A stretch of DNA of 64,000 bases, taken from Candidatus Leptofilum sp. Its GTDB lineage: Bacteria > Chloroflexota > Anaerolineae > Promineifilales > Promineifilaceae. The position numbers were made by a program, and so were the translations under genes. The notes under the pieces are model-generated. The model did no database searches. It had not been told where the DNA came from and saw nothing but the letters and a program-made list of their open reading frames with translations. The stretch covers positions 323,414-387,413 of the forward strand of contig NZ_CBDCWX010000005.1 in the NCBI RefSeq assembly GCF_965223525.1. The letters run 5' to 3'. Shown here piece after piece: positions 8,994 to 62,691 of the stretch (position 1 is its first letter; each line of letters starts with the position of its first letter).

Positions 8994-9004
8994 GGGTCGG
9001 TTTA

Positions 9005-22751: not shown

Positions 22752-22754
22752 AAA

Positions 22755-27993: not shown

Positions 27994-27998
27994 AATAG

Positions 27999-28057
27999 CC
28001 ACAGAGAGCACAGAGATATAAGAGAAAACCCCTCTTTTTCCTCTGTGCTCTCTGTGG
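27999..28057. repeat. CACAGAG-type hairpin repeat (perfect 17-bp stem)
   Basis: CCACAGAGAGCACAGAG (27999-28015) / CTCTGTGCTCTCTGTGG (28041-28057), 25-nt loop. Sits between the ATPase and permease genes. Confidence 0.75.
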
Positions 28058-28066
28058 CAAAATATT

Positions 28067-36604: not shown

Positions 36605-37117
36605 TTACTTATTGGCTTCCCAACGCTCATAAAGCTGCGAGCCGAACGCCTCGTATTGCTCCTGACTGTCAAAAAATTTCTTTGGAATGGAATAAAAGCC
36701 TGTGCCTATCCAAATCATAAGATATTTTTTGTAATGCTTTATTGATCTTATTCCCTTCCATTTTGTCAAGGTCTCATTGGCCTCAGTTGCTTCAAACAAA
36801 CCATCCTCTTTAAGAACAAATTTATGTTCTCCTAAAACACCTGGCAAGTAACCAACTGAGAATACCGAGACCACAAGGCCAAATAAGCAAAGAGCTAACA
36901 TGATAAGCGTTGTCCCAATAGAAGCAACAATGAAGCCTGTAAGTATCGTACAAAAAGTACAGACCACATCTCCAGATTGTTCACGACTAAAATATGCTGG
37001 GAAAAACAGGGTTGCCCAAATTATAAAACCCATTACCCATACAGCTTTTGACCGTGGGATGAGGTAAAGTTGCAAATAAAGATGTTCGAGGCGCGAGTGA
37101 TGTGTTGTGATTTCCAA
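36605..37117 (-). CDS. hypothetical membrane protein with YcxB-like C-terminal region
   Basis: 170 aa, two or three TM helices, then ...WKGIRSIKHYKKYLMIWIGTGFYSIPKKFF... Markedly lower GC than the flanks. Confidence 0.45.
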   Translation of the reverse strand: MEITTHHSRLEHLYLQLYLIPRSKAVWVMGFIIWATLFFPAYFSREQSGDVVCTFCTILTGFIVASIGTTLIMLALCLFGLVVSVFSVGYLPGVLGEHKFVLKEDGLFEATEANETLTKWKGIRSIKHYKKYLMIWIGTGFYSIPKKFFDSQEQYEAFGSQLYERWEANK

Positions 37118-37262: not shown

Positions 37263-38879
37263 ATGAGCGCGACGATGATTTTGTATAACGGCCGTATCCA
37301 CACCCTAAACCCCCAACAGCCCACGGCAACGGCCGTTGCCATCCGTGATGGAAAAGTGCTGGCAATTGGTTCTGATAATGAAATAAAGTCCCTGCTGGCT
37401 GCTGACGGAGAGTTGGTGAATTTGAACGGCCGTTGCCTCACCCCCGGCTTGGTAGATGCCCATGTCCACTTCCAACATTTCGCTCTCAGCCTCCAGCGCG
37501 TTGACCTACGCGGCAGCCAAACCCTCGACGAAGCCCTCCAGCGCATCCGCCAAAAACTTTCTACCGTTCCCCGTTCACCGAATACCGATTACTGGTTACT
37601 GGGAAGAGGCTGGCGCGTTAACGATTGGGGACAAACCATCTTCCCTACTGCCGCCCACCTGGATGCCATCAGCAGCGATGTGCCAATTTGCCTGCACGAC
37701 CATAGCGGCCACGCCGCCTGGGTAAACAGCTGCGCCCTGCAACTGGCCAACATCACTGCCCAAACGGCCGATCCACCCGGCGGCCAAATTCAGCGCGATG
37801 AAAATAGCCAACCAACAGGCATCCTGTTCGAAGACGCAATGGATTTGGTTACCCAACACATCCCTGCTACCACCACTGCCCAGATTGCCGACGCCATGCG
37901 CGAAGCACAACAATATTGCTGGCGCGTCGGGCTTACCGGCCTGCATGATTTTGACGGCCGTGCCTGCTTCATCGCCCTGCAAAGCCTGCAGCAAAATGGG
38001 GAATTAGGCCTGCGCGTGGTGAAAAATGTGCCGGTCTACCGGCTGGAACACGCCATTGGCGTGGGGCTACGCAGCGGTTTCGGTAACGACTGGCTACGCA
38101 TCGGCAGCGTGAAAATATTTGCCGATGGCGCGCTCGGCCCCCGCACTGCCGCCATGATTGCTCCCTACGAAGGGGAACCAGACAATTACGGCATCGTCGT
38201 CACAGACAAGGAAGAGATGCTGGAGAAGGCGAGTACCGCCAGTGCCAACGGCCTCAGCGTCACTGTCCACGCCATTGGCGACAAGGCAAATCATGACGTG
38301 CTGGATGTGTTTGAAGCTGTTCGCCAAGAAGAAACAATACGCAATACGCAATACAAATTACGTCACCGCATTGAGCATGTCCAACTTATCCACCCCGCCG
38401 ACCAGCCCCGACTAGCACAGCTCAACGTCATCGCCTCTATGCAGCCCATTCACGCAACTTCGGACATGGAAACGGCCGTTCACCATTGGGGCAGCCGCAC
38501 AAAAGATAGCTACGCCTGGCGCATCATGCTCAACAGCGGAGCCACACTTGTTTTTGGCTCCGATGCGCCGATTGAGAAGATTGATCCGATGTTAGGGATT
38601 CATGCGGCCGTTACCCGACAACGCCCCGACGGCAGCCCTGGGCCAGACGGCTGGCACCCTGAACAAAAGCTCACCATGGCCGAAACTATCCACGCCTTCA
38701 CCACCGCCGCCGCCATTACCAGCGGGCAGGAAGCCACGCAAGGTAGCATTATCTGCGGTAAACTTGCCGATTTCACTATTTTCAGCCGGGACATCTTCAC
38801 CATCCCGCCGGATGAGTTGCTGGATGTGGAAATTAGCGGCACGGTTGTGGGGGGCACCTTCAAGTACCGCACGTTTTGA
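37263..38879 (+). CDS. YtcJ-like metal-dependent amidohydrolase (Amidohydro_3 type)
   Basis: NGRIHT...AVAIRDGKVLAIG...PGLVDAHVHF N-terminus and HAIGD / IEHVQL / GSDAP metal-site motifs. Confidence 0.8.
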   Translation: MSATMILYNGRIHTLNPQQPTATAVAIRDGKVLAIGSDNEIKSLLAADGELVNLNGRCLTPGLVDAHVHFQHFALSLQRVDLRGSQTLDEALQRIRQKLSTVPRSPNTDYWLLGRGWRVNDWGQTIFPTAAHLDAISSDVPICLHDHSGHAAWVNSCALQLANITAQTADPPGGQIQRDENSQPTGILFEDAMDLVTQHIPATTTAQIADAMREAQQYCWRVGLTGLHDFDGRACFIALQSLQQNGELGLRVVKNVPVYRLEHAIGVGLRSGFGNDWLRIGSVKIFADGALGPRTAAMIAPYEGEPDNYGIVVTDKEEMLEKASTASANGLSVTVHAIGDKANHDVLDVFEAVRQEETIRNTQYKLRHRIEHVQLIHPADQPRLAQLNVIASMQPIHATSDMETAVHHWGSRTKDSYAWRIMLNSGATLVFGSDAPIEKIDPMLGIHAAVTRQRPDGSPGPDGWHPEQKLTMAETIHAFTTAAAITSGQEATQGSIICGKLADFTIFSRDIFTIPPDELLDVEISGTVVGGTFKYRTF

Positions 38880-38986: not shown

Positions 38987-41583
38987 TGCACGGTTATTGG
39001 CCCCAAAATGTAGCGGTCACCATTCAAGTTGCCTTCGTGGTCAGAGATGTGCAGGCGACGGCCGCTTACCATTTCATACAATCCCACCTCAATAAAGTAG
39101 GTGCCGGGCGGCAGGTCGGGGGGAATCGTCAGGCGGTACGGGTCAATGAAGCGTTGGCCGGGCAGCCATTTGGGAATCCACAAATGGGTCGGCGCAGAGC
39201 CACCCAGCGGCGTGTAATCCAGAAAAACGTACGGCACATTGTTGCTGTCAATGAGATGGACAAAAATGGTGTAACTTTCTTCTGCTTTAGCCAGGGCCTC
39301 CCATTCCAGCGTCACGTTCACGATGTCGCCACGCTGGACAGTGTTTAGGTTTTCAACTGTCCAGGGGGCTGCGGCGCGGTCTCCGTTTACACGCGCAGAG
39401 GCACTTACCAAGCCCACCCGCTGCCGGAAGTTGGCCAGCAAATGCTCAGTTTCGGGCGGAGCGTCCACGGCGTTAACGCTTAGCGGCCCCAAATCTAAGT
39501 CAAGTGGAATTTCCTCGTTTTGGCTGAGGTTTTTCATATTGAGCCGCAGTGGATAAACGCCACCCGCTAAATCGTGCGGCAGCGCAAAGTCAAAACGCTC
39601 CACAATTACCTCATTTTCCCACCAGTTTGGGGTGATGAGATGGCTGTCGGTGGTAAATTCATAGCGGAGATCGCCCACGTACAGCACGGGAACGTAAAAA
39701 TCTTGCGTGCCAGCAGGCGCACGCATGGCCAAAGTCAGGGGCACAAAATCACCAGTCGTGGCGTGATGTTCTGGCAAATCATAAGCTACAATTTCGATGT
39801 CGTTGGCAACGGCCGTTACCGCAATCATTCCCTCTGGCACCGTTGTGTCTCCAGGCTCTACTACTTGGTAAAAGATGCTAGACGGCCGTAACCGAAACTC
39901 AGTCCCCGCCAAAGCTCCCTGCCGAAAATTACTTAAATAAACTGGCCCAGCGGGCAAATTGGCAAAAATGGCATCCAACCACGGGTTTGCCGTACCAGCC
40001 GCTACCAACTGTGGCGTAACCACTGCCGGATTCGGCCAATTTCCATTGACATAACGCTCATGCCAAAGTGGCGTCATTCGCTCCCAATCACTCAATAGCA
40101 CCGCCCCACTTTCCTGCCCATCGGCCCAATGCTCAACTGCTTCAATTACCGTCTGCCCCTCATCATAATCCCGCAACGAAACGCGCGGCATATTTTGCCA
40201 CACCTGCCAAATCGGCCCCGCAATAAAGAAAAAAGCCAGCGCAAAATAAAACCCGCGTCCATCCACGTTCATCCGCGTCCCAATTACTAAAAGCCAAAGC
40301 AACCCCAGCCCCGCAAACAGCCCGACAATCAAAAATGGGCCAACCAAATACGCCATGCTGTCCTGCGCCCGCAAGCTAATGACGAAGGCATAGGTGCCGA
40401 GGAAAGTTAAGGCAAAGAGCGTAACAAGGTGGCCGGGGGACAAAGTGAAGGGGTGAGTACTCGTTTCCTTTTTACCTTGTCTCCGGCGATTGGCAATCGC
40501 ATTCACCTTGTCAAAAATGGGCCAGAGGAGGCCGAACAGTGCTAACAAAATAACAGGCCAGCTAAACTGGAGACGCAGCAGACTCCAGAAAACGCGGGCG
40601 CGGTTGGGCTGGTCGGCCAGGCTAACATAGGGCAGCGAGTCGCTAAGGCCACGTGCCAGAATGTGATCCAGAAAGCCATTGAGCGTGTTCATAGTGGTGG
40701 GGCCAAAGCCGGGATCCATCGGGCTGCGAATAGGGAAGTAGAGCCAGACGGATAGCCCCAGCAGGGCAAATCCAACCATTTTTAAAACGGTTTGCCAGTT
40801 GTGCAGCGCCATGCGGCGGAGGCTAGAAATTACAGATTGGAGATTAAGGCACGTGTTCCCAGTCTCCAGTCTCCAGTCTCTAAACTCTTTGGTCAGCCAA
40901 ACGCTCAGAATAAATAACGCATACGCCGGAAAGCCAAAGACGGTGAGCGGGTGGTGCGTCACGCCTAGTCCGGCGGAGAAGCAGAAGGCGCAGAGCCATT
41001 TGTTTGAAGGGGTGAGAGAATCCACCTCTTTAGCCCTTCGCCCCTTCACTCCTTCATTTTCTGCCCACCATTTTGTCAAAAAGAATAGATTGGCGGCGGT
41101 AAAGGTGGCGGTGAGGATGTGAGGGTTGGCGTGGATAGCGTGCTGCCAGTGGTTTACGGCCGTTCCCACCACAAAAGCACCAAAAAGCGCAGCCATCGTC
41201 CCCAAAAGTTGACCTTCTTGAAGAAGGTCAACTTTTCTTGCCACCGTGCGAATGATGCCAAAGACAAACCAGGCACCCAGCGAAGCAGAAACGGCCGCAA
41301 GCAAATGCATCCGCCAGGCCACCGTGCCAATGGGAATAATTGTCTGGAATAGCTTGCCCAACAGCGTGATAAACGCATAGCCTGGCGGGTGGGCAATGCC
41401 CAACATGTTAGCCACAAAAGTGTACTCACTAGGGTCGCCCAGCACGGGGGATTGTGCCAGGGTGAGGAGGTAGAGGGTGAGGAGAGTTATTAGTAAAAAG
41501 AGACTGGAGATTAGAGACTGGAGATTCGTTTTTAGTCTCCAATCTCCGGTCTCTAATCTCCTATTTTTTGAGTAATTGGTCAT
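38983..41583 (-). CDS. DUF2723/TMEM260-like GT-C-fold membrane protein (putative polyprenol-phosphate-sugar-dependent glycosyltransferase) with large extracytoplasmic C-terminal domain
   Basis: VLGDPSEYTFVANMLGIAHPPGYAFITLLGKLF signature. More than 10 TM helices, then ~390 soluble residues. The start is uncertain (ATG 41583 chosen) because the N-terminus reads through repeat 41499-41562. Confidence 0.7.
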   Translation of the reverse strand: MTNYSKNRRLETGDWRLKTNLQSLISSLFLLITLLTLYLLTLAQSPVLGDPSEYTFVANMLGIAHPPGYAFITLLGKLFQTIIPIGTVAWRMHLLAAVSASLGAWFVFGIIRTVARKVDLLQEGQLLGTMAALFGAFVVGTAVNHWQHAIHANPHILTATFTAANLFFLTKWWAENEGVKGRRAKEVDSLTPSNKWLCAFCFSAGLGVTHHPLTVFGFPAYALFILSVWLTKEFRDWRLETGNTCLNLQSVISSLRRMALHNWQTVLKMVGFALLGLSVWLYFPIRSPMDPGFGPTTMNTLNGFLDHILARGLSDSLPYVSLADQPNRARVFWSLLRLQFSWPVILLALFGLLWPIFDKVNAIANRRRQGKKETSTHPFTLSPGHLVTLFALTFLGTYAFVISLRAQDSMAYLVGPFLIVGLFAGLGLLWLLVIGTRMNVDGRGFYFALAFFFIAGPIWQVWQNMPRVSLRDYDEGQTVIEAVEHWADGQESGAVLLSDWERMTPLWHERYVNGNWPNPAVVTPQLVAAGTANPWLDAIFANLPAGPVYLSNFRQGALAGTEFRLRPSSIFYQVVEPGDTTVPEGMIAVTAVANDIEIVAYDLPEHHATTGDFVPLTLAMRAPAGTQDFYVPVLYVGDLRYEFTTDSHLITPNWWENEVIVERFDFALPHDLAGGVYPLRLNMKNLSQNEEIPLDLDLGPLSVNAVDAPPETEHLLANFRQRVGLVSASARVNGDRAAAPWTVENLNTVQRGDIVNVTLEWEALAKAEESYTIFVHLIDSNNVPYVFLDYTPLGGSAPTHLWIPKWLPGQRFIDPYRLTIPPDLPPGTYFIEVGLYEMVSGRRLHISDHEGNLNGDRYILGPITVQ
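40825..40881. repeat. GGAGACT/GGAGATT heptamer repeat embedded in frame in the DUF2723 gene
   Basis: Minus strand: AGAGACT GGAGACT GGAGACT GG ... TTAATCTCCAATCTG..., translated as RDWRLETGNTCLNLQSVISS. Confidence 0.75.
41499..41562. repeat. GGAGATT/AGAGACT heptamer hairpin (about 21-bp stem)
   Basis: GGAGATTAGAGACTGGAGATT pairs with AATCTCCGGTCTCTAATCTCC at 20 of 21 positions. Lies at the GT4 / DUF2723 gene junction. Confidence 0.8.
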
Positions 41584-42685: not shown

Positions 42686-42805
42686 GAGCAGGATTGTAGC
42701 AGCAGGACACAGCTGTGGCTAAAGGCAGCAACCTACGCCTAAGCAACGATTGGCAGTCTCCGTTACAATGTGTGTGAGCAGAATTTGTTACGTTGGAGGC
42801 TTGAT

Positions 42806-43354
42806 ATGGAGAAAGTTCAGATACGGAGAGCCGTGCCGGATGATGCGGACAGGATGGCGCACTGTTTGGTGGCTGGGAATCGAGCGTCATTCGATGGGTT
42901 GGTTCCAGAGAAGTGCCTGGATTTTCCGGTGGAAGAGAGCAGCCGCAACTGGCGGCAAACCCTGGTTGAAAATGAAACCAGCCACATCTGGCTGCTGCTG
43001 GTGGCAGAATATGAAGCGGGGTTGGTTGTGGGCTACGCCATGTTTGGCACGGGCAGCCGCCAGTCTGAGTTTGGCAGTGAACTGCTCTCTATGGCCGTAG
43101 ACCCCAATTGGCAGCAGCGCGGCATTGGGCGGCTGTTGGTGCAACGGGGGGCTGCGTTTTACCAAAAGCAGGGAATCCATTCGATGCTGGTGGGGGTCTT
43201 GGAGATCAATCCAAACGTGGCTTTTTATGAGCGGCTGGGGGCAAAGTATGTTGAGGAACGGCCGTACAATTGGGACGGCTTCGAGACGACCGAACTACTT
43301 TATGGCTGGGCCAATTTAGAGATGCTTGCAAATCTGCGAGGAAGAGGAAGGTGA
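42806..43354 (+). CDS. GNAT-family N-acetyltransferase
   Basis: GGAGG RBS. MEKVQIRRAVPDDA start. Acetyl-CoA motif A QQRGIGRLLV. Confidence 0.8.
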   Translation: MEKVQIRRAVPDDADRMAHCLVAGNRASFDGLVPEKCLDFPVEESSRNWRQTLVENETSHIWLLLVAEYEAGLVVGYAMFGTGSRQSEFGSELLSMAVDPNWQQRGIGRLLVQRGAAFYQKQGIHSMLVGVLEINPNVAFYERLGAKYVEERPYNWDGFETTELLYGWANLEMLANLRGRGR

Positions 43355-46036
43355 GAACGGCCGTTCTTCTTGCTGCACCTCGTCAAGCCGCCTCTGCAAC
43401 GCCGCAGCGACTTCCCGCACATATGGCTCTTGCAGAACCCCAAGATGATCTGTGGAGAACTGACAGAGGTACACTCCCTCAGCCGCTGCTTTGTCCCAGC
43501 CTAACGATTGATTTGTGAGGCGGCTACGTTCAACCACAAACATATCAATTTTGCCCTGAAACGTGCCACTTGGCCGATAGCGTAAGCGAGATTGGCGGGT
43601 AACAAACTTCATTAAATAATAATCTCGATGCTGCCGCAAAACGGGTGCGCCACTGGCAAGATAGAAGCTAAAAACAGACTTCTTAGCAATTTGATAAAGC
43701 CGAGCAAGCCGCTGGCGTGATTGCAAGGCAATATGCCGCACCTTGCCCACAATCAATTTTGGTAAGTTTTTGTCCAAGCCAAACGTTGGCAAACTGTCCA
43801 CCTGTAGGCCAACGCCATTCTGATGCTGGATCATCAACGATTCTCTACTGTCTAGTGGCGATGGTTCGATGAGAGCCAGTAGAGCCACTTGCTGCCCAGC
43901 TTTTTGCAGCTGCCAAGCCATTTCATAGGCAACCATGCCGCCATAACAGAAACCGCCTAAATAGTAGGGACCTTCTGGCTGGAACTGCCGAATCTCCGCC
44001 ACATACCGCTCAGCAAGCGCTTCAACTCTGGGTGACTCCACGCGATGCCCTGTCCAGTTAGGCGGCTGCACGCCATAAAAGGGCTGGTCATCGGCCAAAT
44101 AGTCGGCCAATTTTTGATGATTGAAGACATGCCCAGCACCGCCATGTACACAATAAAATGGGGGGCGGCCGCCGCCTTCTTTAATTGGAACAAGGGCCGA
44201 CCATGAATCAGACGGCCGTTGCCGTTCGATAGCTTCAGCCAACTGGGCAATCGTTGGATATTGGAACAGCAAGGTAATAGGCAAGCCTTGCATGATTCGT
44301 TTATCAATTTGGGCAAACACGAGCGTAGCCAGCAATGAGTGACCGCCTAGCGTGAAGAAATTGTCGTATATCCCAATGGGCTTTACGCCGAGAACCTCCT
44401 CCCAAATGGCTACTAAGGTCGCTTCATGCTCTGTGGTTGGGGCAGCAAACGCCTCATTTTTCTCTGTTTGGGCAAGTGGCAGTTTACTCAGAGCCAGCCG
44501 GTCTATTTTACCGTTTGCGTTTTGGGGCAATTTGTCTAAAAAGATAAATTGGGCGGGAACCATATATTCAGGCAGCGCTGTTCGCATAAAGTGAACGAGG
44601 GCTTCGGTCGTTGGCTTTTGGCCTGCATAGGGAACGACGTAGGCAATGAGTTGTTTATCGCCAACTGCTGGGGTATGGGTAATAACGGCCGTTTCCTTCA
44701 CCAATTTATACTGAGCCAAAGTCGCTTCAACTTCCGCTATTTCAATGCGAAAGCCTCGAATTTTTACCCGTGAATCTTTGCGACCTAAATAAACTAAACT
44801 ACCATCTGGTTGCAAACGGCCTAAATCTCCTGTGTGATAAAGTCTCATCGTAGGCTCGTTAGCGACTTGCGGGAATGCCTGCTTGGTTAAAGCAGGCCGC
44901 TGCCAATAAGCCACAGCAAGATACGGGCTTTTGACCACAATTTCGCCTACTTCGGATGGAGGGACGGTGCGGTCGTTTTCATCAACCAAAATAATCTCTT
45001 TATCTTGAACAGGGTAGCCTACAGGGACAACATTGGTTTCTAGCTCAATCTGTTTATTCACAAAAAATTGACGGTAAATAGAAACCTCTGTTGAGCTTAA
45101 ATTGTTGAGTAAAATGCAGTTATCAGAAAATCGCTTTCTGTATCGCTCAACATCCGCAGTAGAAACTGCCTCGCCCCCTAAATGGATTAGGCGAATCTTC
45201 GGAAAATTTTCATCCCCCTCCAAATTGTCCACAAAATGCCGAAAAACTGTCGGGATGGAGTGAAAAATCGTTATGCCTTCCTCAATCAACCAACGTTCTA
45301 ATCGTGTTAATCCCAACAGTTTTAAGTTAAAAGGAAAAATCGCTGCCCCTTTCAACATCGCCCGGAAAATATCACTGATACCCGCCGCATGGCTTAGCGA
45401 GCCAAATAAAGACAGCCGATCATCCATACAAATTTTGGTCGCATTGGTGTAGGTCATCACGTAATGAAGAATGTTTCGCTGATTTTGCAAAACTCCTTTG
45501 GGCTTGCCTGTAGAACCTGACGTGTAAATGAGATAGGCGGGCGCGTCTGGTGAGATGGGAAGGCTCAAATCTTTGGCTGATTTACCTTGCACCTCATCTT
45601 CTACATTAATAATCTGGATTTTGTCTGTCTGATAGGTTTGGGCTGTAGGGAAGTTTTTGTGATTGGTTAAAATCAACTCAGCCAGAGAGTCTTGCAATAA
45701 ATATGATGCTCTGGCCTGGGGATACGATGGGTCTATGGGAACAAATGCTTTGCCTGCCTTTAGCACGCCAAATAGCGCGGTTACAAAAGCAATGGTGGGC
45801 TCAAACAGTAAAGCGACAACTTTTCCCTCCCTTCCAGCTTTTTCCAAAATGGTATGGGCGATCTGGTTGGCTCGGTCATTTAATTGCTGGTAGGTCAACG
45901 CGGCCGTTTCAGTTTTAATAGCTAAGCGGCCTGGGGTTTGCTGAACTTGGGATTCAAAACAAGCAGCAATGGATTGCTCTATGCTCTTTTTTTCAAATGG
46001 TCTAAATGTAGCAGGTGGGGGAACGGTCACCTTCAT
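43316..46036 (-). CDS. stand-alone NRPS-like protein: adenylation - thiolation - thioesterase (A-T-TE), no condensation domain
   Basis: A-domain cores LIYTSGSTGKPKGV, YHTGDLGR, GRKDSRVKIRGFRIE, NANGKIDR. Carrier-protein site FFTLGGHSLLA. TE domain PFYCVHGGAG ... GGFCYGG ... DHLGVL. Confidence 0.85.
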   Translation of the reverse strand: MKVTVPPPATFRPFEKKSIEQSIAACFESQVQQTPGRLAIKTETAALTYQQLNDRANQIAHTILEKAGREGKVVALLFEPTIAFVTALFGVLKAGKAFVPIDPSYPQARASYLLQDSLAELILTNHKNFPTAQTYQTDKIQIINVEDEVQGKSAKDLSLPISPDAPAYLIYTSGSTGKPKGVLQNQRNILHYVMTYTNATKICMDDRLSLFGSLSHAAGISDIFRAMLKGAAIFPFNLKLLGLTRLERWLIEEGITIFHSIPTVFRHFVDNLEGDENFPKIRLIHLGGEAVSTADVERYRKRFSDNCILLNNLSSTEVSIYRQFFVNKQIELETNVVPVGYPVQDKEIILVDENDRTVPPSEVGEIVVKSPYLAVAYWQRPALTKQAFPQVANEPTMRLYHTGDLGRLQPDGSLVYLGRKDSRVKIRGFRIEIAEVEATLAQYKLVKETAVITHTPAVGDKQLIAYVVPYAGQKPTTEALVHFMRTALPEYMVPAQFIFLDKLPQNANGKIDRLALSKLPLAQTEKNEAFAAPTTEHEATLVAIWEEVLGVKPIGIYDNFFTLGGHSLLATLVFAQIDKRIMQGLPITLLFQYPTIAQLAEAIERQRPSDSWSALVPIKEGGGRPPFYCVHGGAGHVFNHQKLADYLADDQPFYGVQPPNWTGHRVESPRVEALAERYVAEIRQFQPEGPYYLGGFCYGGMVAYEMAWQLQKAGQQVALLALIEPSPLDSRESLMIQHQNGVGLQVDSLPTFGLDKNLPKLIVGKVRHIALQSRQRLARLYQIAKKSVFSFYLASGAPVLRQHRDYYLMKFVTRQSRLRYRPSGTFQGKIDMFVVERSRLTNQSLGWDKAAAEGVYLCQFSTDHLGVLQEPYVREVAAALQRRLDEVQQEERPFSPSSSSQICKHL

Positions 46037-46212
46037 AAGCTAGCCCCTTTTGATATGAGTGATTATCAAAAATTTGGCTACTTCAAAGGTGATAATCAGC
46101 TTAACCCTAAGTAGAGAATCTTTCGGGGCGGATTAAGTTTAATCACGGTTTTACGCAATGGGGGAAATTGCTCACAAGCGTTTAATCAGCGGCTGGGACA
46201 ATTTAGAATGGC

Positions 46213-46587
46213 TTACAAATCTGCGAGGAAGGTAAGAACGGCCGTTCTCACCTCCTCCACAGTTAATCCACTCGTATCCAAATAAAAATCACAGTGCTTG
46301 CGGGCATGGCGCAGCAGATGATGTTGCTGCACTAGCCGCTGGGGGCCACCATCAATGTGGGGGCGGCGGGCGCGTGCATTGGCGTAATCCACGTCGAGGA
46401 AGATGAGCAGATCGGGCTGGGTGACGCGCTGCCACATATTGGCGACGTAAGAATGCTCCTGAGCAGGGTGTCGCGCTTCGTAACCAGCCGCCTTGAGTGC
46501 AGTAGTGAGGGTACTCTTGCCTGAAGAACATGGGCCAACCACGGCAACGCGCAGGGTTTTACTGTCAACCAAATCAGAATCTGGCAT
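46213..46587 (-). CDS. small P-loop NTPase/kinase-like protein
   Basis: MPDSDLV start. Walker A GPCSSGKST, Walker-B-like LLIFLDVD. Confidence 0.55.
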   Translation of the reverse strand: MPDSDLVDSKTLRVAVVGPCSSGKSTLTTALKAAGYEARHPAQEHSYVANMWQRVTQPDLLIFLDVDYANARARRPHIDGGPQRLVQQHHLLRHARKHCDFYLDTSGLTVEEVRTAVLTFLADL

Positions 46588-46598
46588 AAATTTCCAGG

Positions 46599-46655
46599 GG
46601 ATTGGAGACTGAAGATTAGAGATTACCAATCTTCAGTCTCTCATCTCCAATCTCC
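46599..46655. repeat. GGAGACT/GAAGATT heptamer hairpin
   Basis: GAGACTGAAGATT / AATCTTCAGTCTC perfect 13-bp stem with an outer ATTGGAGA / TCTCCAAT extension. Lies between the PP2C-like and P-loop genes. Confidence 0.8.
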
Positions 46656-46656
46656 T

Positions 46657-47379
46657 TCAAATTGGTAAAGACACATCCATCCGGCGCACGCCATCTTTTT
46701 GCGGCGCGGCGTGTACCGAAACGACTAATACGCTAATGTCGTCACGCGGACGGCCGTTGTCCTTCTCGTTTGCCTCAGCTAGTAACATATCGGCCAGGGT
46801 TCGTGCTTCGGTAATGCCCGTGCCAATCATTTGCCGGGTGGCCGCGACGGGGTCATAGTTGCCATTACCGCTCAGGCTACCCGCGTGGCGCAGGCCATCG
46901 GTGAACACCACAATGATCGTACCTGGCAAAATGGGCAGCTCGGTAATGACTGGCTTGGTATTACGATAGATACCTACACAGCGGGAGGGCTCATCGAGCA
47001 AATAAAGGCCATCTTGCTGCGTAAAGACAACAACTGGAGATTCATTGTTGCGGGAGATGACGAAGGTTTTGGTCTCCATATCCACCGAGAGCATATTGAG
47101 CGTTGCGCTAACTTTGCCCCCGCGGTAGGTGTAAAGGTAGTCATGTGCGGCACGAGCGGCCGCGCCGTCCCGCACGCCTTCACTAAGTAGTTGGATTGCC
47201 TTGCGTGCCACCAAATTGCTAATTGCCTTGGCCGATTTGCCACTACGCTGCCCATCTACCAGCACAAACGAGAGTCCGCCATGCGGCCGTTCAATCATTT
47301 CTAGCGTATCACCACTTTCGCTGGTGGCGTATTTGCCAATTTTGGCAACAGCAAATTGCACATCCATAACAGAATTCAT
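46657..47379 (-). CDS. SpoIIE/PP2C-like serine phosphatase domain protein
   Basis: ~240 aa. SGDT...VLVDG..SG and VVFTDGL motifs and overall PPM-type length. Start is 47379 or 47367. Confidence 0.6.
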   Translation of the reverse strand: MNSVMDVQFAVAKIGKYATSESGDTLEMIERPHGGLSFVLVDGQRSGKSAKAISNLVARKAIQLLSEGVRDGAAARAAHDYLYTYRGGKVSATLNMLSVDMETKTFVISRNNESPVVVFTQQDGLYLLDEPSRCVGIYRNTKPVITELPILPGTIIVVFTDGLRHAGSLSGNGNYDPVAATRQMIGTGITEARTLADMLLAEANEKDNGRPRDDISVLVVSVHAAPQKDGVRRMDVSLPI

Positions 47380-47456
47380 TATAGCCGACGGGATAAAGAA
47401 ACAAAAAAAACGCTGATGACATATCACCAGCGTCCTTAGCAGGTCGTTCAGTTGGC

Positions 47457-47729
47457 TTAAATTTGGGTAGCCAGCTTCGCGTGTTTAGCGTGATGACGCC
47501 GCTGCCAAACCAGATAATGCGTGTGGATGTTGTCTGCTAGCCCAACCAGCGCCAGGGCGTTAAACAAAAGCGTGCCAAGGAGCCGTACATAATCGGTCGT
47601 TTCCACATAAAGCGGCAGACGGGTGGCTGTTGCCAGGGCAAAAACCATTATTACCACACAAATAAAGCTCATAAGCCAAACGTGTAGGGCACTGTGGGGA
47701 ACATTTTTTGTAGACAGTTGTTGTTTCAT
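47457..47729 (-). CDS. hypothetical small membrane protein
   Basis: GGAGAG RBS. Two hydrophobic helices and a basic C-terminus. Confidence 0.4.
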   Translation of the reverse strand: MKQQLSTKNVPHSALHVWLMSFICVVIMVFALATATRLPLYVETTDYVRLLGTLLFNALALVGLADNIHTHYLVWQRRHHAKHAKLATQI

Positions 47730-47856
47730 ATCACTACTCTCCAAGATTGTTTGACGAACCTAGCAATCATGCCATTTTGATCTGTCATTGAAAATTAAAC
47801 GTGACATGATTGCCAGGTTAACCAGTTAACAACTGTCTCCGTTTGATGCCTACAAA

Positions 47857-48294
47857 TTACTCTTCCACGATAAGCGTGGCAACCATGCCTGCTTCGCGGT
47901 GGCCAGGAATACCGCAGTAAACAGCATAAGTACCGGGGGGTACGGCCGTAAATTCTGCCATCACCTGTTCATTCGCGGGCATATGCACATGCCAATCCAG
48001 CTCATCAATATCAAAACTGTGAGCATACGTATCCTTGTTGTCCAGGGCAAAGGCGATGGCTTCGCCTGCCTGTACACGCAGCACATCTTGCCCAAAGCGC
48101 ATATTTTCGGAGGTGTAGTGGATGGCTGAGGGGGAAACGGCCGTTTCCGAACGACCTCCCAGCAAATCATTCAGCAATCCCATCCTGGCGATAACCAAAC
48201 CAAAAAGCACAATCCCCACAAGAATTCCGCCCAAAAGCACTAAATAATTCAGCCAGCTATTTTCTTTTTCCTGCACAGTTGTTGTAACTTGCAT
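47857..48294 (-). CDS. membrane-anchored cupredoxin (type-1 copper) domain protein
   Basis: N-terminal TM helix. Copper ligand pattern H...YCGIPGHREAGM. Confidence 0.7.
   Translation of the reverse strand: MQVTTTVQEKENSWLNYLVLLGGILVGIVLFGLVIARMGLLNDLLGGRSETAVSPSAIHYTSENMRFGQDVLRVQAGEAIAFALDNKDTYAHSFDIDELDWHVHMPANEQVMAEFTAVPPGTYAVYCGIPGHREAGMVATLIVEE
48133..48148. repeat. 16-bp perfect palindrome GGAAACGGCCGTTTCC (extended ACGGCCGT element)
   Basis: Read directly from the sequence. An identical 16-mer lies at 48396-48411. Both are inside coding sequence and translate as E-T-A-V-S. Confidence 0.95.
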
Positions 48295-50036: not shown

Positions 50037-53000
50037 ATGCCTAGATTGACAATCTCATTGCTAGGGGGAGTGAAAATTGCGTTAGACGGTACGGCCGTAT
50101 CCAACTTCGCTTCTCGCAAGGCCGATGCACTTTTTATTTACCTCGCCTGTAACCCACGTCCGCACCCCCGCGAAACATTAGCAACCCTCTTCTGGCCCAA
50201 CAACGACCAAACTCGCGCCCTGGCCAATCTCAGCGTCATTCTCTCTAGCCTGCGGAAGCAGGTAGACGATTTTTTGCTCACCGACCGGCACATGGTTTCT
50301 TTCAACACCGAAGCAACATTTTGGCTAGATGTGGTGTCATTTGAGCAGGCGATTGCAGCTACCCAGAAGCAGCAGGCAGACAAAATCAGCCGAACCATTG
50401 CCGCGCAGTTGCAAACGGCCGTCTCCCATTACAAAGGCGACTTCCTGGCAGGGTTCAACGTGCGTGGCGTGCCAGAGTTTGAGGCGTGGGTGCTGCTGGA
50501 GCAAGAACGCCTGCGCCAAATGATGCTCGATGCCCTGGCTAATTTAGTCAGCTTTCACCAACAACGCAGCCAATTTTCTGAAGGCATCCAGGTTGCCCAA
50601 CAACTCCTCGCGCTTGATCCCCTACAAGAAGAGATTCATCGCCAGCTTATGCGGCTCTACGCCCTCGACAACCAACGCCCCGCCGCCCTGGCGCAATATG
50701 ACCAATGCACCGCCATTTTGGCTGAGGAGCTAGGCGTCGAACCGGATGAGGAAACGAAGCAGCTCTTTGAAGAGATCCGAGATGACAAGGTGACGAACCA
50801 AGAAAATGTCACCCAAGCTGCCGCAGGCAGCACACCCACGCACAATCTCCCCACCCCAACCACTAAATTTATTGGTCGCGAAAACGAATTGGCGCACATT
50901 GAGAACTGGTTGGCGGAGCCAAACGACCGTCTGCTCACCATCATTGGGCCAGGCGGCATGGGTAAAACGCGGCTGGCGCAGGAAGCGGCCCGTGGGCAAG
51001 TGAATCAATTTGCTGATGGCGTGTGGATGGTATCGTTGGTGCCACAGACAAATTTTAGTGAGATGATAACGGCCGTTTCCGAAACCATTGGTCTTACCCT
51101 ATCCGGCCAAGAAGCCATTGCCACCCAGCTCCACAACCATCTCAAACCCGTCGAAATGCTGCTCATTCTCGACAATTTGGAACATTTGCTAAGCACAGAG
51201 CTGCACAATTTCCTCATCCAGCTCACGCACGATGCGCCCGAACTACGTATCATCACCACCAGTCGTGAACGGCTAAACCTGCAAGCCGAGCGGCTGCTTA
51301 CTTTAGGTGGGCTACCATTTCCAACAATCGGTGAACGGTTATCGGATAACGGATTACGGCTCACCGATTACCCAGGAATTCAACTCTTTTCAAACCGAGT
51401 CCAACGGATTCGTGCCGGGTTTGAGCTGGAGAAGGAGGAAACGGCCGTAATCCAACTGTGTCAACTCGTTGGTGGGCTACCGCTGGCGCTGGAATTAGCT
51501 GCAACATGGATTCGCGTTTTATCGGTAAACGAAATTGTGGCTGAAATTAAGCGGGAACTGAGTGCGCTGGCGACCACGCTGCGCGATGTGCCAGAACGCC
51601 ACCGCAGCCTGCACGCCGTCATTGAATCTTCCTGGCAAATGTTGTCTACAGATGAGCAAACATTGTTCCGCAAACTGGCCGTTTTCCGAGGTGGGTTAAC
51701 GCGAACCGCCGCCCAACAAATCGCAAAGGCAACATTGCCGCAATTAATGAACTTAGTCGATCGCTCCTTTCTGCGGCTCGATGACGATCAGCGGTTTCGC
51801 CGTCACCCGCTCATGCTGCAATTTGCCCAAGAAAAGCTCGCCAGCCAACCAGGTGAGCAGCTGCAAACAGAAGCAATGCATGCCAGCTATTTTGCGAAGT
51901 TTGTCCATTCCCGTGAATCAACTTTAGCGGGTGAAGACACGCAGCAAGCGCTAGATGAGATCAACACAGAGCTAGAAAATATTCGCGCAGCCTGGCAGTG
52001 GTCCTTGCAGCAGATGAATGCACCATTACTCAATCAAGTCATCGAAAGCATTAGCCGCTTTTTTACAGATCGCAGTCGGTATTTAGAAGGGGCAGATTTA
52101 TTTGAGAGTGCATTGCTGGCAATTGAGGAATGGGAGGAAACGGCCGTTTCTGAACAACTCATCGCCAAAATGCAGGTTGAACTCGGTTTTTACCTCTACC
52201 AAACTGGCCAATACGCCAAAGCGGAAAAAGTGCTGCTTGAGGCCAACACATCAACACAAAAACTTGGTCTGAACACAGCCCGTCTCAATTGCTTAAAACA
52301 TTTAGGCGATGTAATTGCCGATCAAGGGGAGCGGGATCGCGCCCGAACAATTTTGGAAGAAGCGTTGCAACTGTGTCGCAAAACTGAAGCTGACGATGAA
52401 ATTGTGGAAATGACCATCTTAAACACCTTGGGCAACCTGGAAGTTTCGGCAGGAAATTATGACACGGCCCAACATCATTTTGATCAGGCAATGGACATTG
52501 CCAAAGCATTAAACCATACGCTGCGCATTGCCATTTTGCACAACAACATTGCCATCATTGCCAACCGGCAAGACAATTTCGAAGAGGCGTTGCACCAATA
52601 CCAATTGGCGCGTAACAAATTCGTCGAAAACAATCACGCCTGGGGTATCGCAGCCACAACCCACAACATTGGCATGATCTACGCAGACCTAGAAAGATAT
52701 GAAGAAGCACTAGCAACAATTCAGGAAGCATACGCCGCCCATGAAAAAATCGGGCATCGGCGCGGCATGGTCGGGGGGCTTTCTTTCATGGGGACAATTC
52801 AGTTCAAATTAGGAAAACGACGCGAGGCGGGACGTAACTATTACGAATCGCTGAAAATGGCGCAAGAGGTGGGTGTTGCTTGGTCAGCCGTTGCCACCCT
52901 GGTTGATGTTGCCGAATTAGAGATGAGTTACGGCCGTTTTGAGAAAGCGGCGGAGCTGGTTGCGTTTGCTATTCAGCAAGAGACGGCCGAGGCAGTCACA

Positions 53001-57750: not shown

Positions 57751-57835
57751 CAGTAAACAGTTATCAGTAGGTCAGTGGTCAGTATTCAGGACGGGTCGCT
57801 GATTACTGAATACTGTTTACCGATTACCGTTCACC
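57751..57835. repeat. heptamer-periodic hairpin element (CAGTAAA/CAGTTAT/CAGTATT type)
   Basis: CAGTAAACAG...CAGTATTCAG / CTGAATACTGTTTAC arms. The right end supplies the last codons (VNGNR*) of the GT2 gene ending at 57817. Confidence 0.75.
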
Positions 57836-59000: not shown

Positions 59001-59990
59001 ATGACAGATTTAGATTTATCCATTGTGGTTCCTGTTTATAACGAAGAAGAGAATTTACGAGAATTGTTAGCCGAAATTACGGCCGCGCTCAAAGAGGAGC
59101 CAATCCGCTACGAGGTGATTTTTATTGATGATGGCAGCAGCGACAGCAGTTTTACTGTGCTGGAACAGTTGCACCAAGCAGACGATCGCGTCATCGGCAT
59201 TCAATTTCGGCGTAATCATGGGCAAACGGCCGCTTTTGCCGCCGGGTTTGAGCAGGCCAAAGGTCGCTACATCCTCACGATGGATGCCGACCGCCAAAAC
59301 GACCCCGCCGACATCCCCGCCATGATTAAGAAGCTGGAAGAAGGATACGATGTGGTGAACGGCTGGCGCGAAAATCGCCAAGATGCGTTTTTGATGCGGA
59401 AGCTGCCCTCCTTCATTGCCAACCGCCTCATTGCCCGGCTCAGTGATGTGCCGCTGCGCGACCGGGGCTGCTCACTCCGCATCTTCCGCGCCGAGGTCAC
59501 AGAAGAGCTAAAGCTGTACGGCGAACTCCATCGCTTCATCCCGGAAATGGTCAGTTTTGCTGGCTTCAGCATGGCAGAAGTCCCCGTGAATCATCGCCCC
59601 CGCGTGGCAGGCACCTCCAAATACGGCATCTCGCGCACCTTTCGCGTCATTGTAGATTTGATGACCGTTCTCTTTTTACGCAAATATAGCGACCGGCCCA
59701 TGCACTTGTTTGGCATGTTGGGGACATTATTCGGTGGGTTAGGCACCCTGCTTGGTGTCTACCTTGTCTGGCTCAAAATTTGGGCAGGTATTCAGGATAA
59801 CCGATTTTGGGATGGATTTAGAGAGTTTCAAATTGGGGAACGGCCGTTGCTCCTGTTAGCCGTTTTGCTAGTCATTCTGGGAGTGCAGTTCCTAGTAATG
59901 GGCCTCATCGCCGAGCTAATCGTGCGTACTTACTACGAGTCGCAAAACAAAACCGTCTACTACATCCGCAAAGTCGTCGGCGGCAAATAA
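59001..59990 (+). CDS. GT2 polyprenyl-phosphate glycosyltransferase (ArnC/GtrB/DPM1-like)
   Basis: LSIVVPVYNEEENL...IFIDDGSSD...MDADRQNDP and two C-terminal TM helices. Confidence 0.85.
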   Translation: MTDLDLSIVVPVYNEEENLRELLAEITAALKEEPIRYEVIFIDDGSSDSSFTVLEQLHQADDRVIGIQFRRNHGQTAAFAAGFEQAKGRYILTMDADRQNDPADIPAMIKKLEEGYDVVNGWRENRQDAFLMRKLPSFIANRLIARLSDVPLRDRGCSLRIFRAEVTEELKLYGELHRFIPEMVSFAGFSMAEVPVNHRPRVAGTSKYGISRTFRVIVDLMTVLFLRKYSDRPMHLFGMLGTLFGGLGTLLGVYLVWLKIWAGIQDNRFWDGFREFQIGERPLLLLAVLLVILGVQFLVMGLIAELIVRTYYESQNKTVYYIRKVVGGK

Positions 59991-60040
59991 CTATCATTAG
60001 CCACAGAGGAAAAAGAGTTTTCAGAGTAAATAGCCATCAC

Positions 60041-60131
60041 CTCGGCTGCGGTCGGCGTCTCGCCGTACCGCTTACTATTTCATGCTGAATCTATGTAAAT
60101 TGGGGCTAAATGGTGTGGGAAACGGCCGTTT
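60041..60131 (+). repeat. 91-bp direct repeat, left copy
   Basis: 87 of 91 positions are identical to 61594-61684, with no indels. Contains a GC hairpin (GCGGTCGGCG..CGCCGTACCGC) and ends in GGGAAACGGCCGTTT. Confidence 0.9.
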
Positions 60132-60249
60132 TCCATCCAAACTGCCCCGTTCCCCCACATTCCAGCTAGGCAAAGAAAGTGGCAAGGCGGGTTGTCTGCT
60201 ACAGCACACTAAGAAGACTCGCCCCGAGCAAGGGGTGAAGGGCTAGAGT

Positions 60250-61566
60250 TTACTCTGGACTTGAAATTACAACTTCATTCCAAACACCCGATGCTATGTC
60301 ATCGGTGTAGCGATAAAAATACTCTATGTTACGTTCGCTAAGTTTTACACTAGAGGCCACAATGTACCCTAACCCTGCGCCTTCATACAGCCATACAGGA
60401 GCCCTCGTCATAGAGACTGATAAAAGAGAGTCCTCATGCAAAAGAGAGATTGTTTGCGACTTCAAATCGAGTAAATAAATGCCGCTCCTATCTGATATTT
60501 CTGCATTGAATGCGACCATTTCAGAATCAGGTGACCAAGAATAGTATCCCGTGTAAGTATATGGAAAAGAAATTATCTCTGTATCCCACCCACCAGTCTC
60601 GCTCATTTGACTGACGCCAATTTGTCTTGTTAGCTCGAAGCCTGTTGAGTCGTACTCATTTACCTGATAAACAATCTTTTGCCCATCGGGCGAAAACACT
60701 GGATTGTAAGCACACATTGTCGGTGGAGAGACAGGCGTTTCCATGCCTATGTCGAAATCGTAAACCATTACTTGACGATACCATGCTTCATCAGTAACAA
60801 CATAGACGATTTGGTTTCCTGTTGGTGACCAACTTGCAGACCAGTATGAAAGAGATGGATTGGAAAGACGCTCATAAAAATGGTCAACTTCTTTCGTTTC
60901 TGGGTCAAATAAGAAGAGCTTTTGGCCAGTGAAGGTATCGTCCTCAATAGAATATCTAGACCCTTGCATCAATACTAATCTTTGCGTATTTGACCAACTG
61001 AAGTTTGTATTTGTTTGAGGAAAAAACTCTGTGTCACCAATTGTCTGGTTCAATGGAACAAACATGCTGCTCCACCCCGTGCCAGCAGAGTGTAAAGCTA
61101 ATCCAATGTAACGACGATCCCCATCCACATATTTTCTTATAATAAGTTCTGCTCTGTGGATTAGGTTGCTATCTAATTCGATAGCCTCTGTGCGTAGTAG
61201 CTCACCCGTTTCAAGCGATAAAAAGCTCAGTTTCAAAGATCTTGTTTTTGTATGCACATATGTAATTTCATTATTTTTTTCTGCAATGATAAAAGATGAC
61301 CTGCCACCAAGTCTTGTTCGTACGTTTTCAATATCACATGGGGGTGGGGGGATAGTCTCAAATTCCTCCTCAATTTCGCTGTCAGGCGTATCTTCGATAG
61401 GTCTTGTATTTGAATCGCTCGCTGCTGCACTTGCTAATGGCTGATTTGTTGAAGTTGCTTGTACAGAAACGTTTTCAGCAACTCCGTTTTCTACACGACA
61501 AGCGACAAACAATAGCGCATATGCAAATAAAATAATATTAAACTGCGTAGAAGTTAATTTGTTCAT
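60250..61566 (-). CDS. lipoprotein with PD40/TolB-like beta-propeller repeats
   Basis: MNKLTS... signal peptide with lipobox LFVAC. Repeated WSPTGNQIVY / FSPDGQKIVY / WSPDSEMVAF blades. GC is clearly lower than the neighbours. Confidence 0.65.
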   Translation of the reverse strand: MNKLTSTQFNIILFAYALLFVACRVENGVAENVSVQATSTNQPLASAAASDSNTRPIEDTPDSEIEEEFETIPPPPCDIENVRTRLGGRSSFIIAEKNNEITYVHTKTRSLKLSFLSLETGELLRTEAIELDSNLIHRAELIIRKYVDGDRRYIGLALHSAGTGWSSMFVPLNQTIGDTEFFPQTNTNFSWSNTQRLVLMQGSRYSIEDDTFTGQKLFLFDPETKEVDHFYERLSNPSLSYWSASWSPTGNQIVYVVTDEAWYRQVMVYDFDIGMETPVSPPTMCAYNPVFSPDGQKIVYQVNEYDSTGFELTRQIGVSQMSETGGWDTEIISFPYTYTGYYSWSPDSEMVAFNAEISDRSGIYLLDLKSQTISLLHEDSLLSVSMTRAPVWLYEGAGLGYIVASSVKLSERNIEYFYRYTDDIASGVWNEVVISSPE

Positions 61567-61593
61567 ATTACAAATTTCCAATTAGTAGATTGG

Positions 61594-61684
61594 CTCGGCT
61601 GCGGTCGGCGTCCCGCCGCACCGCTTACTATTTCATGCTGAATCTATGTAAATTGGGGCTAAATGTTGGGGGAAACGGCCGTTT
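61594..61684 (+). repeat. 91-bp direct repeat, right copy
   Basis: See 60041-60131. Confidence 0.9.
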
Positions 61685-61728
61685 CTCCCAAACAATCGAC
61701 GCTCCTCAGCACAAGCCTGTGGCAAAAA

Positions 61729-62691
61729 TTAGGGCAGTGCAGCAACAAAATCGAGGATGAGTTGCTGTACACGTTCGGTGTCATTGGGTGCCAAAATGTC
61801 CCCGGCCAGCACGTGGCTACCCTCATCTTGTGCATCGGTAATTGGAGCAATTTCTTTTGACGCTACGCCAATTTGGGCAAAGATCTCCTCTGTTTTAGCG
61901 GGACTAACCACCGTGTCGTTGGGCGAATAAATCACCAGCACCGGGCTTTGAATACCCGCTAAATCAGCACGGCGCGTGAGCTTGACCAACCCCATCATTG
62001 GCAAAATGGCGCGGGTGGGATAGCTTTCGGTCCAATATTGAGCGTGCCCTTCATTGGCAGGCTCCCAACTGCGCTCCGAGCCAATAACGAGGTTGACAAT
62101 TTGCTCCGCCCAAGGCCAGGTTAGAATCTCTGAAGTCGGGTCGGTGGGGCCAAAGTTTGGCGAGATGAGGACGGTGGCCAGCAAATTGTCGGTGTTCGGT
62201 TGCGCGGCTAGCCAGGTCGCGGCCGTTCCACCCGTCGAGACGCCAATCACAATCACTTTTTCACCCAGCCGCTGCCCAATTTGGTATGCTTCCCAGGTGT
62301 CGTTGAGCCAATCATTCACAGTTGCTTCGGCCATCGCTTCGCCAGAACGGCCGTGTCCGGTAAACCGCGTATAAAACAAATTCGCCCCCAACTCTGCCAC
62401 CACATTGTCCGACAACGGTGCAGTCTCCTGCCGGGTCGCGGAAAAACCATGCAGGTACACAGCTGAAATTTCTGTTTTCTGCCCCGGCTCACCCGCCCAA
62501 ATGATCGTTTTTTCGGCATTAGGCACAATGTCGCTAAACTGCGCTTCGGACTCGGCCAGATAGCTATCCAAATCGTCTGGCAAATTAACCGGCGCGAGTT
62601 CAGTATCCACAACCACACGCGGCCCAGCCAGAAAAACAATGACCAATAACAAAATGATGACTAGGGGAATCCACACAATTTTTCTCTTCAT
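61729..62691 (-). CDS. membrane-anchored alpha/beta hydrolase (lysophospholipase/esterase-like)
   Basis: MKRKIVWIPLVIILLL anchor. HGFS oxyanion motif. Nucleophile elbow GVSTGG. Confidence 0.75.
   Translation of the reverse strand: MKRKIVWIPLVIILLLVIVFLAGPRVVVDTELAPVNLPDDLDSYLAESEAQFSDIVPNAEKTIIWAGEPGQKTEISAVYLHGFSATRQETAPLSDNVVAELGANLFYTRFTGHGRSGEAMAEATVNDWLNDTWEAYQIGQRLGEKVIVIGVSTGGTAATWLAAQPNTDNLLATVLISPNFGPTDPTSEILTWPWAEQIVNLVIGSERSWEPANEGHAQYWTESYPTRAILPMMGLVKLTRRADLAGIQSPVLVIYSPNDTVVSPAKTEEIFAQIGVASKEIAPITDAQDEGSHVLAGDILAPNDTERVQQLILDFVAALP

Follow-up and report, generated by a model that had tools for sequence, protein, structure and literature searches.

How does a single gene of foreign composition come to lie between two copies of a 91-bp direct repeat, in a stretch of DNA in which no recombinase gene is found? 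The question is raised by a locus in 64,000 nt of 'Candidatus Leptofilum sp.' DNA (Chloroflexota; contig NZ_CBDCWX010000005.1, positions 323,414 to 387,413; hereafter the window, whose own numbering is used throughout), where a repeat that we call R brackets a lipoprotein gene. The slot downstream of a conserved alpha/beta-hydrolase gene is variable here, and its occupant is a gene that was acquired horizontally and encodes a TolB-like beta-propeller lipoprotein. The two copies of R are native-type intergenic DNA, each with two hairpins, one of which is the highly iterated palindrome of this lineage, ACGGCCGT. The best reading of the locus, to which we would give an even chance, is a duplicative insertion generated by integrase-free recombination, with one joint at the palindrome.

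A low-GC lipoprotein gene between direct repeats

The distal copy, R1 (60041-60131, plus strand; GC 0.53), and the proximal copy, R2 (61594-61684, plus strand; GC 0.55), lie in direct orientation, 1553 bp apart from start to start, and are identical at 87 of 91 positions without indels; a recount returned the same figures as the first-pass annotation of this DNA. The pair has an E value of 1.8e-35 in a self-BLAST of the window, and no third copy occurs in the 64 kb. Both copies terminate in GGGAAACGGCCGTTT, with the 8-mer ACGGCCGT at 60122-60129 in R1 and at 61675-61682 in R2. Their edges are sharp: the 70 nt outside each end align no better than shuffled sequences (P ~0.1 on the palindrome side and 0.67 on the other side).

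From left to right, the locus consists of a GT2 glycosyltransferase gene (plus strand, ending at 59990), 50 nt, R1, 118 nt, a gene for a 438-amino-acid protein (minus strand), 27 nt, R2, 44 nt, and the alpha/beta-hydrolase gene (minus strand). The gene at 60250-61566 is the single real gene between the copies, as had been claimed. Its product has a signal peptide, an LFVAC lipobox, a low-complexity linker, and a PD40 beta-propeller (Pfam PD40, with weak matches to NCBIfam TolB families); an AlphaFold propeller model is confident at residues 190-390, and in Foldseek it matches TolB and the propellers of S9 peptidases. The GC content of the gene, 0.407-0.409, compares with 0.51 for the window and 0.52-0.56 for the neighboring genes, and its GC content at third codon positions (GC3), 0.349, is the lowest among 54 open reading frames (ORFs; mean, 0.555; standard deviation, 0.074). 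Among 5.8 billion proteins the lipoprotein has one close homolog, P0002 (86-87% amino acid identity); the remaining matches are remote PD40 proteins with at most 30% identity over most of the aligned length.

Low GC content is by itself no proof of foreignness, since a YcxB-like gene at 36605-37117, with 40% GC and no ACGGCCGT, is conserved in L025, a locus from a relative. The absence of the palindrome is weak evidence, too. The bracketed DNA had been described as motif free, and ACGGCCGT is indeed missing from 60129 to 61675, but with 2.5 sites expected there, such an absence has a Poisson P of 0.085. Among 101 gaps this one ranks 8th, and the motif is missing from 13 of 54 ORFs; we therefore dropped this absence as a sign of foreignness.

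Recent movement of the gene

A search for the cassette in other contexts found its low-GC core in L001, an 1818-bp Logan contig from sample DRR328264, which also encodes P0002. The nucleotide match to the window (91-92%, BLAST) is confined to 60231-61594 (minus strand), a 1364-bp core of GC 0.41 made up of the lipoprotein gene with a 27-nt leader before it and ~19 nt beyond its 3' end; similarity in the adjoining spacer dies out within ~25 nt of 60231. For the lipoprotein gene, the synonymous divergence (dS) between the window and L001 is 0.16 and the nonsynonymous divergence (dN) 0.067, whereas core genes differ from the window by a dS of 1.1-1.4 in L024, the closest organism in the same sample (90% amino acid identity in the P-loop protein discussed below), and of 0.76-1.14 in the relatives L002 and L025. 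Given a dS of 0.16 against 1.1-1.4, the two species-level lineages would have exchanged the low-GC core, or have received it from a common donor pool, long after they had separated.

In L001, an R-like element (70% identical to R; E = 2.7e-11) lies upstream of the lipoprotein gene, with an extra ~72 nt between the element and the leader; in the window, R2 adjoins the leader directly. Farther upstream, beyond this element, the L001 sequence is homologous to the 3' flank of the window's hydrolase gene (61685-61728, minus strand; P = 0.004), and the contig starts with a few codons that resemble the hydrolase C terminus. Since R and the 118-nt spacer have a native-like GC content (0.53-0.57, against 0.41 for the core) and since L001 carries this element, R behaves as lineage-native DNA downstream of the hydrolase gene, and the core as the mobile part. 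Downstream of the L001 gene there is a ACGGCCGT hairpin but no convincing second R; for a candidate partial copy, similarity beyond the palindrome is only ~53%.

To judge from these comparisons, the lipoprotein gene is foreign and has recently moved, because it is absent from four relatives, stands out in composition, has a single close homolog, and shows a dS of 0.16 where core genes have ~1.1. This upholds the earlier suggestion of an inserted, foreign cassette. The same comparisons bear on whether the arrangement could be an artifact of assembly, a repeated k-mer path having let in a segment of foreign DNA or of a variant strain. A short repeat flanking a compositionally different segment in a metagenome-derived contig is what such an error would produce, but R1 and R2 are not identical (4 differences) and lie in unlike flanks, the gene is complete and has a leader and a terminator-like hairpin of its own, and an independent data set, that of L001, has the same gene, an R-like element, and the same upstream flank. 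We consider an assembly error highly improbable.

A replaced slot rather than an empty site

The gene order in the closest relative, L002, is rhomboid, hydrolase, HD-domain phosphohydrolase (208 amino acids), GT2, GT2, TPR, GroES, and GroEL. The window has the same order, except that R2, the lipoprotein gene, and R1 stand in place of the HD gene, of which the window has none. A hydrolase gene followed by the HD gene is also found in L003-L005 and thus in four relatives (L002-L005). Homology to L002 stops at 61717, 32 nt outside R2, and restarts at 60043, the outer edge of R1, where the joint shows a three-base GAG microhomology with L002. The first-pass annotation had called for a search for the empty site, with a single repeat copy between the GT2 and hydrolase genes. 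No such site was found. In four relatives HD occupies this position, and R is missing from the closest of them; the event was therefore a replacement or had a multistep history and was no simple insertion into a resident R. No relative closer than those described here was returned by the searches with either flanking protein.

The genes on both sides are native neighbors. The GT2 gene (59001-59990, plus strand; Pfam Glycos_transf_2, 2.3e-34), which is convergent with the cassette, has an L002 ortholog with 83.6% nucleotide identity, and the co-directional hydrolase gene (61729-62691, minus strand; Pfam Hydrolase_4) encodes a protein with 89% amino acid identity to one of 'Candidatus Leptofilum sp.' (L002). 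The spacer from R1 to the lipoprotein stop codon (60132-60249, minus strand; GC 0.57) has no match in L002. A donor mosaic in the hydrolase gene was considered as well, but toward the 3' end identity to L002 falls no further than from ~0.88 to 0.80, too small a dip to be decisive.

The ends of several genes carry a short motif, GCCACAG(A/G)G, which is often present as inverted pairs (window 27998-28058, 60000-60008, and 61709-61717; L002 10971, 11628, and 11691). In L002, two direct copies of it flank the HD gene, so that a deletion between them could have removed HD.

A second gene between duplicated gene ends

The segment with a gene for adenylation, carrier, and thioesterase domains (A-T-TE; Pfam) had been said to show the same pattern, and rightly so. 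The A-T-TE gene (43316-46036, minus strand; GC3 0.47), which contains three ACGGCCGT sites, is bracketed by direct repeats of 58-64 bp at 43304-43367 and 46191-46248. The two share 81% identity and differ by one 6-nt indel, and each terminates at AGAACGGCCGTTCT. Here the repeat is a duplicated native junction. Copy 1 (plus strand) combines the 3' end of a GNAT gene (42770-43354) with a duplicated antisense tail of a P-loop gene, and copy 2 (plus strand) combines the native 3' end of the P-loop gene (46213-46587, minus strand) with an orphan GNAT C-terminal fragment, GWDNLEWLTNLRGR and a stop codon.

The relatives show which parts are native. The A-T-TE gene is absent from L024 and L025, where a DNA_alkylation gene follows the P-loop gene, and the P-loop gene tail is kept in both, together with its ACGGCCGT. 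The GNAT C-terminal pattern YGW.D...L in copy 1 is conserved family-wide, with W180 and L186 invariant. The two copies are neither wholly native nor wholly copied. The simplest ancestor would be a GNAT gene and a P-loop gene that overlapped tail to tail; insertion of the A-T-TE gene would have doubled the ~60-bp overlap and so left both neighbors with intact ends. The sequences beyond the palindrome encode unrelated proteins, so that in this case the palindrome is a true junction.

In the neighboring slots (46228-47857 in the window, compared with 5657-9993 in L025), the pyruvate kinase and DUF3360 genes of L025 are absent from the window, and they have no flanking direct repeats.

The iterated palindrome and the ends of the repeats

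ACGGCCGT, an octameric palindrome that contains CGGCCG and GGCC, occurs 102 times in the window where 0.75 occurrences are expected (~136-fold), and none of 100 shuffles exceeded 5. Its sites are conserved at orthologous positions in L002/L025 in 29 of 33 cases, against an expected 23-27% (P = 4e-13), as measured at ~80-85% nucleotide identity and a dS of ~1, where synonymous sites are near saturation. Such conservation marks ACGGCCGT clearly as functional DNA.

Among the three short-range, nonparalogous repeat pairs in the window, two, namely, those around the lipoprotein and A-T-TE genes, end within 2-3 nt of the 8-mer. Given 102 sites in 64 kb, the probability that at least two of three do so by chance is ~5e-4, a value that is post hoc and rests on n = 2; coincidence is unlikely. 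When all pairs of ACGGCCGT sites were scanned with the palindrome as the anchor, R was the only strong ungapped outlier. The link between repeat ends and palindrome proposed in the first-pass annotation is seen in two of the three local pairs; it gained no further pairs from the ~75 kb of sequence of relatives. In the literature searched, we found no paper on ACGGCCGT as a recombination joint, nor one on a palindrome like the cyanobacterial HIP1 in Chloroflexota.

The window also has an 81-bp direct repeat (8399-8479 and 9494-9574, 83% identical). Each copy has two GGTGAC(A/T)GTCACC palindromes and no ACGGCCGT; it lies upstream of tandem SnoaL-like paralogs (8499-8993, 8990-9505, and 9598-10605) and looks like a duplicated operator or promoter region.

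The main rival to a duplication at integration makes the palindrome one limit of a conversion tract. An older, longer duplication (hydrolase 3' flank plus R, ~145 nt) would have come first, and the 91-bp identity would stem from later gene conversion or ectopic copying between ACGGCCGT sites. The conversion tract would start at the palindrome and stop where homology ends, and the repeat would then neither date nor mark the integration of the cassette. Several details fit: identity steps from 96% to ~60% exactly at the palindrome, the flanks of R1 and R2 are weakly similar beyond it (P = 0.065), the R1 flank has an 11-nt exact match, AGTTTGGATGG, to the flank in L001, at the corresponding position (P = 0.02), and L001 has a ACGGCCGT hairpin downstream of its gene without a convincing second R. 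Yet the similarity in the extension is not individually significant; a repeat longer than 91 bp was rejected on that ground, the support for it being no more than marginal with L001 as a bridge. In the second case, moreover, the DNA beyond the palindrome is unrelated protein-coding sequence, and the junction there is real. On balance, we think an older duplication reshaped by conversion unlikely.

Folding of R and the age of the duplication

On the plus strand, R folds into two separate hairpins, a GC-rich one (~60048-60071 in R1) followed by TTACTATTTC, and a second one centered on the palindrome, whose stem extends past the repeat boundary into the particular flank of each copy. The four differences between R1 and R2 fall in the loop (one) and in a bulge (one) of the GC-rich hairpin and in the palindrome arm (two). 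The GC-rich hairpin has the same energy in both copies (-17.2 kcal/mol); the palindrome hairpins have -12.9 and -16.3 kcal/mol with their native arms and -8.4 and -9.8 kcal/mol with the arms swapped. The two substitutions near the palindrome (60108-60137 compared with 61661-61692) covary with the differing flanks, and both hairpins stay paired. Selection on both hairpins could explain this covariation, as could templated correction of a quasi-palindrome. The divergence of 4/91 makes the repeat no older than the cassette dS and is compatible with a duplication at or after the arrival of the cassette.

These folds also suit a quite different explanation, in which R serves as an intergenic module, functional or dispersed (for instance, a bidirectional terminator or a repeat of the repetitive extragenic palindromic [REP] type), and is present on both sides for regulation or through independent spread; the bracket would then say nothing about insertion. 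R1 places a plus-strand hairpin with a T-rich tail 50 nt after the GT2 stop codon, and none of the four differences breaks either hairpin. The GC-rich hairpin is, however, not conserved in L001 (z = +0.95), and the copies of R seen are few: apart from the two in 64 kb there is only the L001 ortholog, with none in the ~75 kb of relatives and none in public collections. A degenerate pattern for the core of R found nothing related in 185,579 species genomes, its matches being one in Microbacterium and an unrelated REP-like family in a Gemmataceae metagenome-assembled genome, and R patterns searched in metagenome contigs (JGI; two patterns) and viral contigs (one pattern) gave no match. R has no terminal inverted repeats or target duplications, and the repeat of the second case is plainly coding. 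A promoter scan detected nothing inside R, and terminator-like sites were found only at the R1 edge and at the lipoprotein gene's own hairpin (60218-60232, on the minus strand, that of the gene). We regard a functional module as an improbable account of the bracket.

The Gemmataceae genome (JAIEPT01; L006-L023) has its own ~86-bp palindromic repeat, beginning GAGGAGCCGCGCACGCAGTAAGCGGTTCGGCGTGACGCC, in at least 19 copies, some of them in tandem; it is unrelated to R.

Signatures of mobile elements

No integrase, transposase, or recombinase domain was detected in the 49 ORFs scanned across the window, which agrees with the earlier statement that none is nearby, and for 38-64 kb the annotated synteny of relatives reveals no recombinase either. 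The 64 kb also contain no tRNA or tmRNA. Several identities for R were considered and rejected. A structured RNA, riboswitch, or tRNA fragment finds no Rfam match in R and none with E < 0.4 in 59-63 kb. A miniature inverted-repeat transposable element (MITE) or an insertion sequence composite would have terminal inverted repeats, which R lacks, and the flanks (CATCAC/TCCATC compared with GATTGG/CTCCCA) show no target duplication; that the repeat is not itself a transposon target duplication had already been proposed, and we concur. An attC site would have complementary ends and RYYYAAC/GTTRRRY boxes; R has neither, there is no IntI, and there are only two repeats. Because its ends are neither inverted nor mutually complementary, R resembles neither a MITE nor an attC. 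A plasmid or phage origin was rejected as well: R and the cassette have no blastn match in plasmid or phage records, and the lipoprotein gene has no PHROG match and no match to a PADLOC defense system.

It could still be that R1 and R2 are the attL and attR of a small mobilizable islet, akin to a cis-mobilizable element (CIME), inserted by a tyrosine or serine recombinase from elsewhere in the genome or from a helper element. Foreign DNA between direct repeats of 60-100 bp is a typical att footprint, and in two species the cassette stands beside an R-type element, as expected of a site-specific target. But the 64 kb hold no recombinase gene and no tRNA or tmRNA target, the repeats of the two cases are unrelated and have the palindrome alone in common, the L001 cassette lies 72 nt off its R-like element, and phage, plasmid, and viral collections contain no match. 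Such an islet seems to us rather improbable.

A proposed integrase-free duplicative insertion

Under the favored reading, an integrase-free insertion with one joint at the palindrome, the duplication of R would be a by-product of the recombination by which the cassette came into place. One possibility is a Campbell-type single crossover of a circular or ends-in intermediate that carried R. Equally, the event could have involved two staggered joints, one of them formed in the palindrome; with staggered joints, the interval between them lands on both sides of the insert. The timing of the duplication, at integration, the role of the palindrome as a joint, and the type of recombination are inferred. 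Nothing in the data tells att-type integration, Campbell-type integration, staggered illegitimate joints, and later gene conversion apart.

Several findings weigh against the favored reading. The block 60044-61716, both copies of R included, is missing from L002, and a single resident R as the target is hypothetical: no empty site with one R was found among L002-L005, and exact-protein look-ups of the lipoprotein, GT2, and hydrolase gave no other contig and hence no strain-level relative. Since the closest relative lacks R, either an earlier step (loss of HD, gain of R) is needed or the block of R, gene, and R arrived whole. There are only two examples, no repeat pair ending at ACGGCCGT occurs in ~75 kb from relatives, ordinary synteny breakpoints do not lie at ACGGCCGT, and other differences in gene content between the window and its relatives have no flanking repeats. 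All four differences between R1 and R2 are structure neutral or compensatory, and since they keep both folds, the 96% identity could be maintained rather than young; R may be a selected element whose high identity comes from gene conversion and not from youth. Finally, the dS contrast takes L001 and L024 to be one organism, which is an assumption.

The locus has counterparts among known systems. In Campbell-type or ends-in insertion-duplication, an insert also lies between direct copies of target-locus DNA, and no dedicated recombinase is needed. The repeats are longer than the minimal homology for RecA-type recombination. The duplicated stretch should be native to the locus; in the second case it consists of the GNAT and P-loop 3' ends, and in the first, R is native in composition and has an ortholog in L001 but is absent from L002. 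The differences are that neither a circular intermediate nor a single-copy target was observed and that, in the first case, the closest relative lacks the target sequence.

Islets with attL/attR and CIMEs likewise have direct repeats of tens of base pairs around foreign DNA without an integrase of their own; here, however, there is no integrase in 64 kb, no tRNA target, and no common core in the two cases except the palindrome. Integron cassettes and clusters of attC sites lacking integrases (CALIN) share with the locus a single orphan ORF of atypical composition between similar direct repeats of 60-140 bp, but the ends of R do not pair, the boxes and IntI are missing, and R forms two separate hairpins. 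Homology-facilitated illegitimate recombination (HFIR) in naturally transformable bacteria has in common with the locus the replacement of resident DNA, here the HD gene, by foreign DNA beside a conserved anchor gene, and the locus has a GAG microhomology at the far joint; HFIR normally yields deletions, not flanking duplications, and the hydrolase gene shows no clear donor-type mosaic.

The closest likeness for the palindrome itself is HIP1, which is also an 8-nt palindrome, over-represented ~100-fold, conserved at orthologous sites beyond background, and found at the edges of rearrangements. HIP1 differs in sequence (GCGATCGC as opposed to ACGGCCGT) and in its cyanobacterial rather than chloroflexotal host. 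It has cognate orphan methyltransferases; none has been identified here, where no search for them was made. In the parts of the literature consulted, HIP1 has been tied to site-specific recombination of plasmids, illegitimate excision, precise insertion of SDR5, and Chi-like stimulation of integration (PMC4390886; PMC5861425; bioRxiv 10.1101/2024.09.10.611283), and the statements on HIP1 in those parts include none on 60-90-bp duplications around whole genes such as those found here.

We see in the locus a variant of two known phenomena, transfer islets flanked by recombination repeats and HIP-associated rearrangement, and not a demonstrated new system. A bolder proposal, which we advance as speculation and think doubtful, is that in Leptofilum-like Chloroflexota an integrase-free gene-insertion pathway cuts or joins DNA preferentially at ACGGCCGT and makes target duplications of 60-90 bp that spare the ends of neighboring genes; the palindrome may also initiate strand exchange or conversion in the manner of Chi. 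In cyanobacteria, what highly iterated palindromes do has been an open question for 30 years; the window comes from an unrelated phylum that has a palindrome of its own, just as abundant and as conserved, and contains two gene insertions with duplications that stop exactly at it. If the proposal were true, HIP-type motifs would gain a concrete function as portable recombination joints for gene gain. Should the link to the palindrome hold genome-wide, these motifs would be tied to gene acquisition; should it fail, what is left is an ordinary small islet of horizontal transfer, flanked by a recombination-generated repeat.

Other repeats in the window and its relatives

Two further kinds of short repeat were observed. 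Intergenic hairpins built of heptamer-like units (GGAGATT or GGAGACT ... AATCTCC) form a dispersed family that is common to the related genomes and reminiscent of the short tandemly repeated repetitive (STRR) sequences of cyanobacteria; sites of the GGAGATT type lie at 41489-41576 and 46597-46648 in the window, at 12935-13005 and 15433-15497 in L025, and at 9479-9552 in L024. Units of ACCGATT or ACGGATT (heptamers like TTACCGA), tandem or dispersed, occur at 22714-22758, 57791-57835, 37563-37593, and 51342-51372, some of them just upstream of genes.

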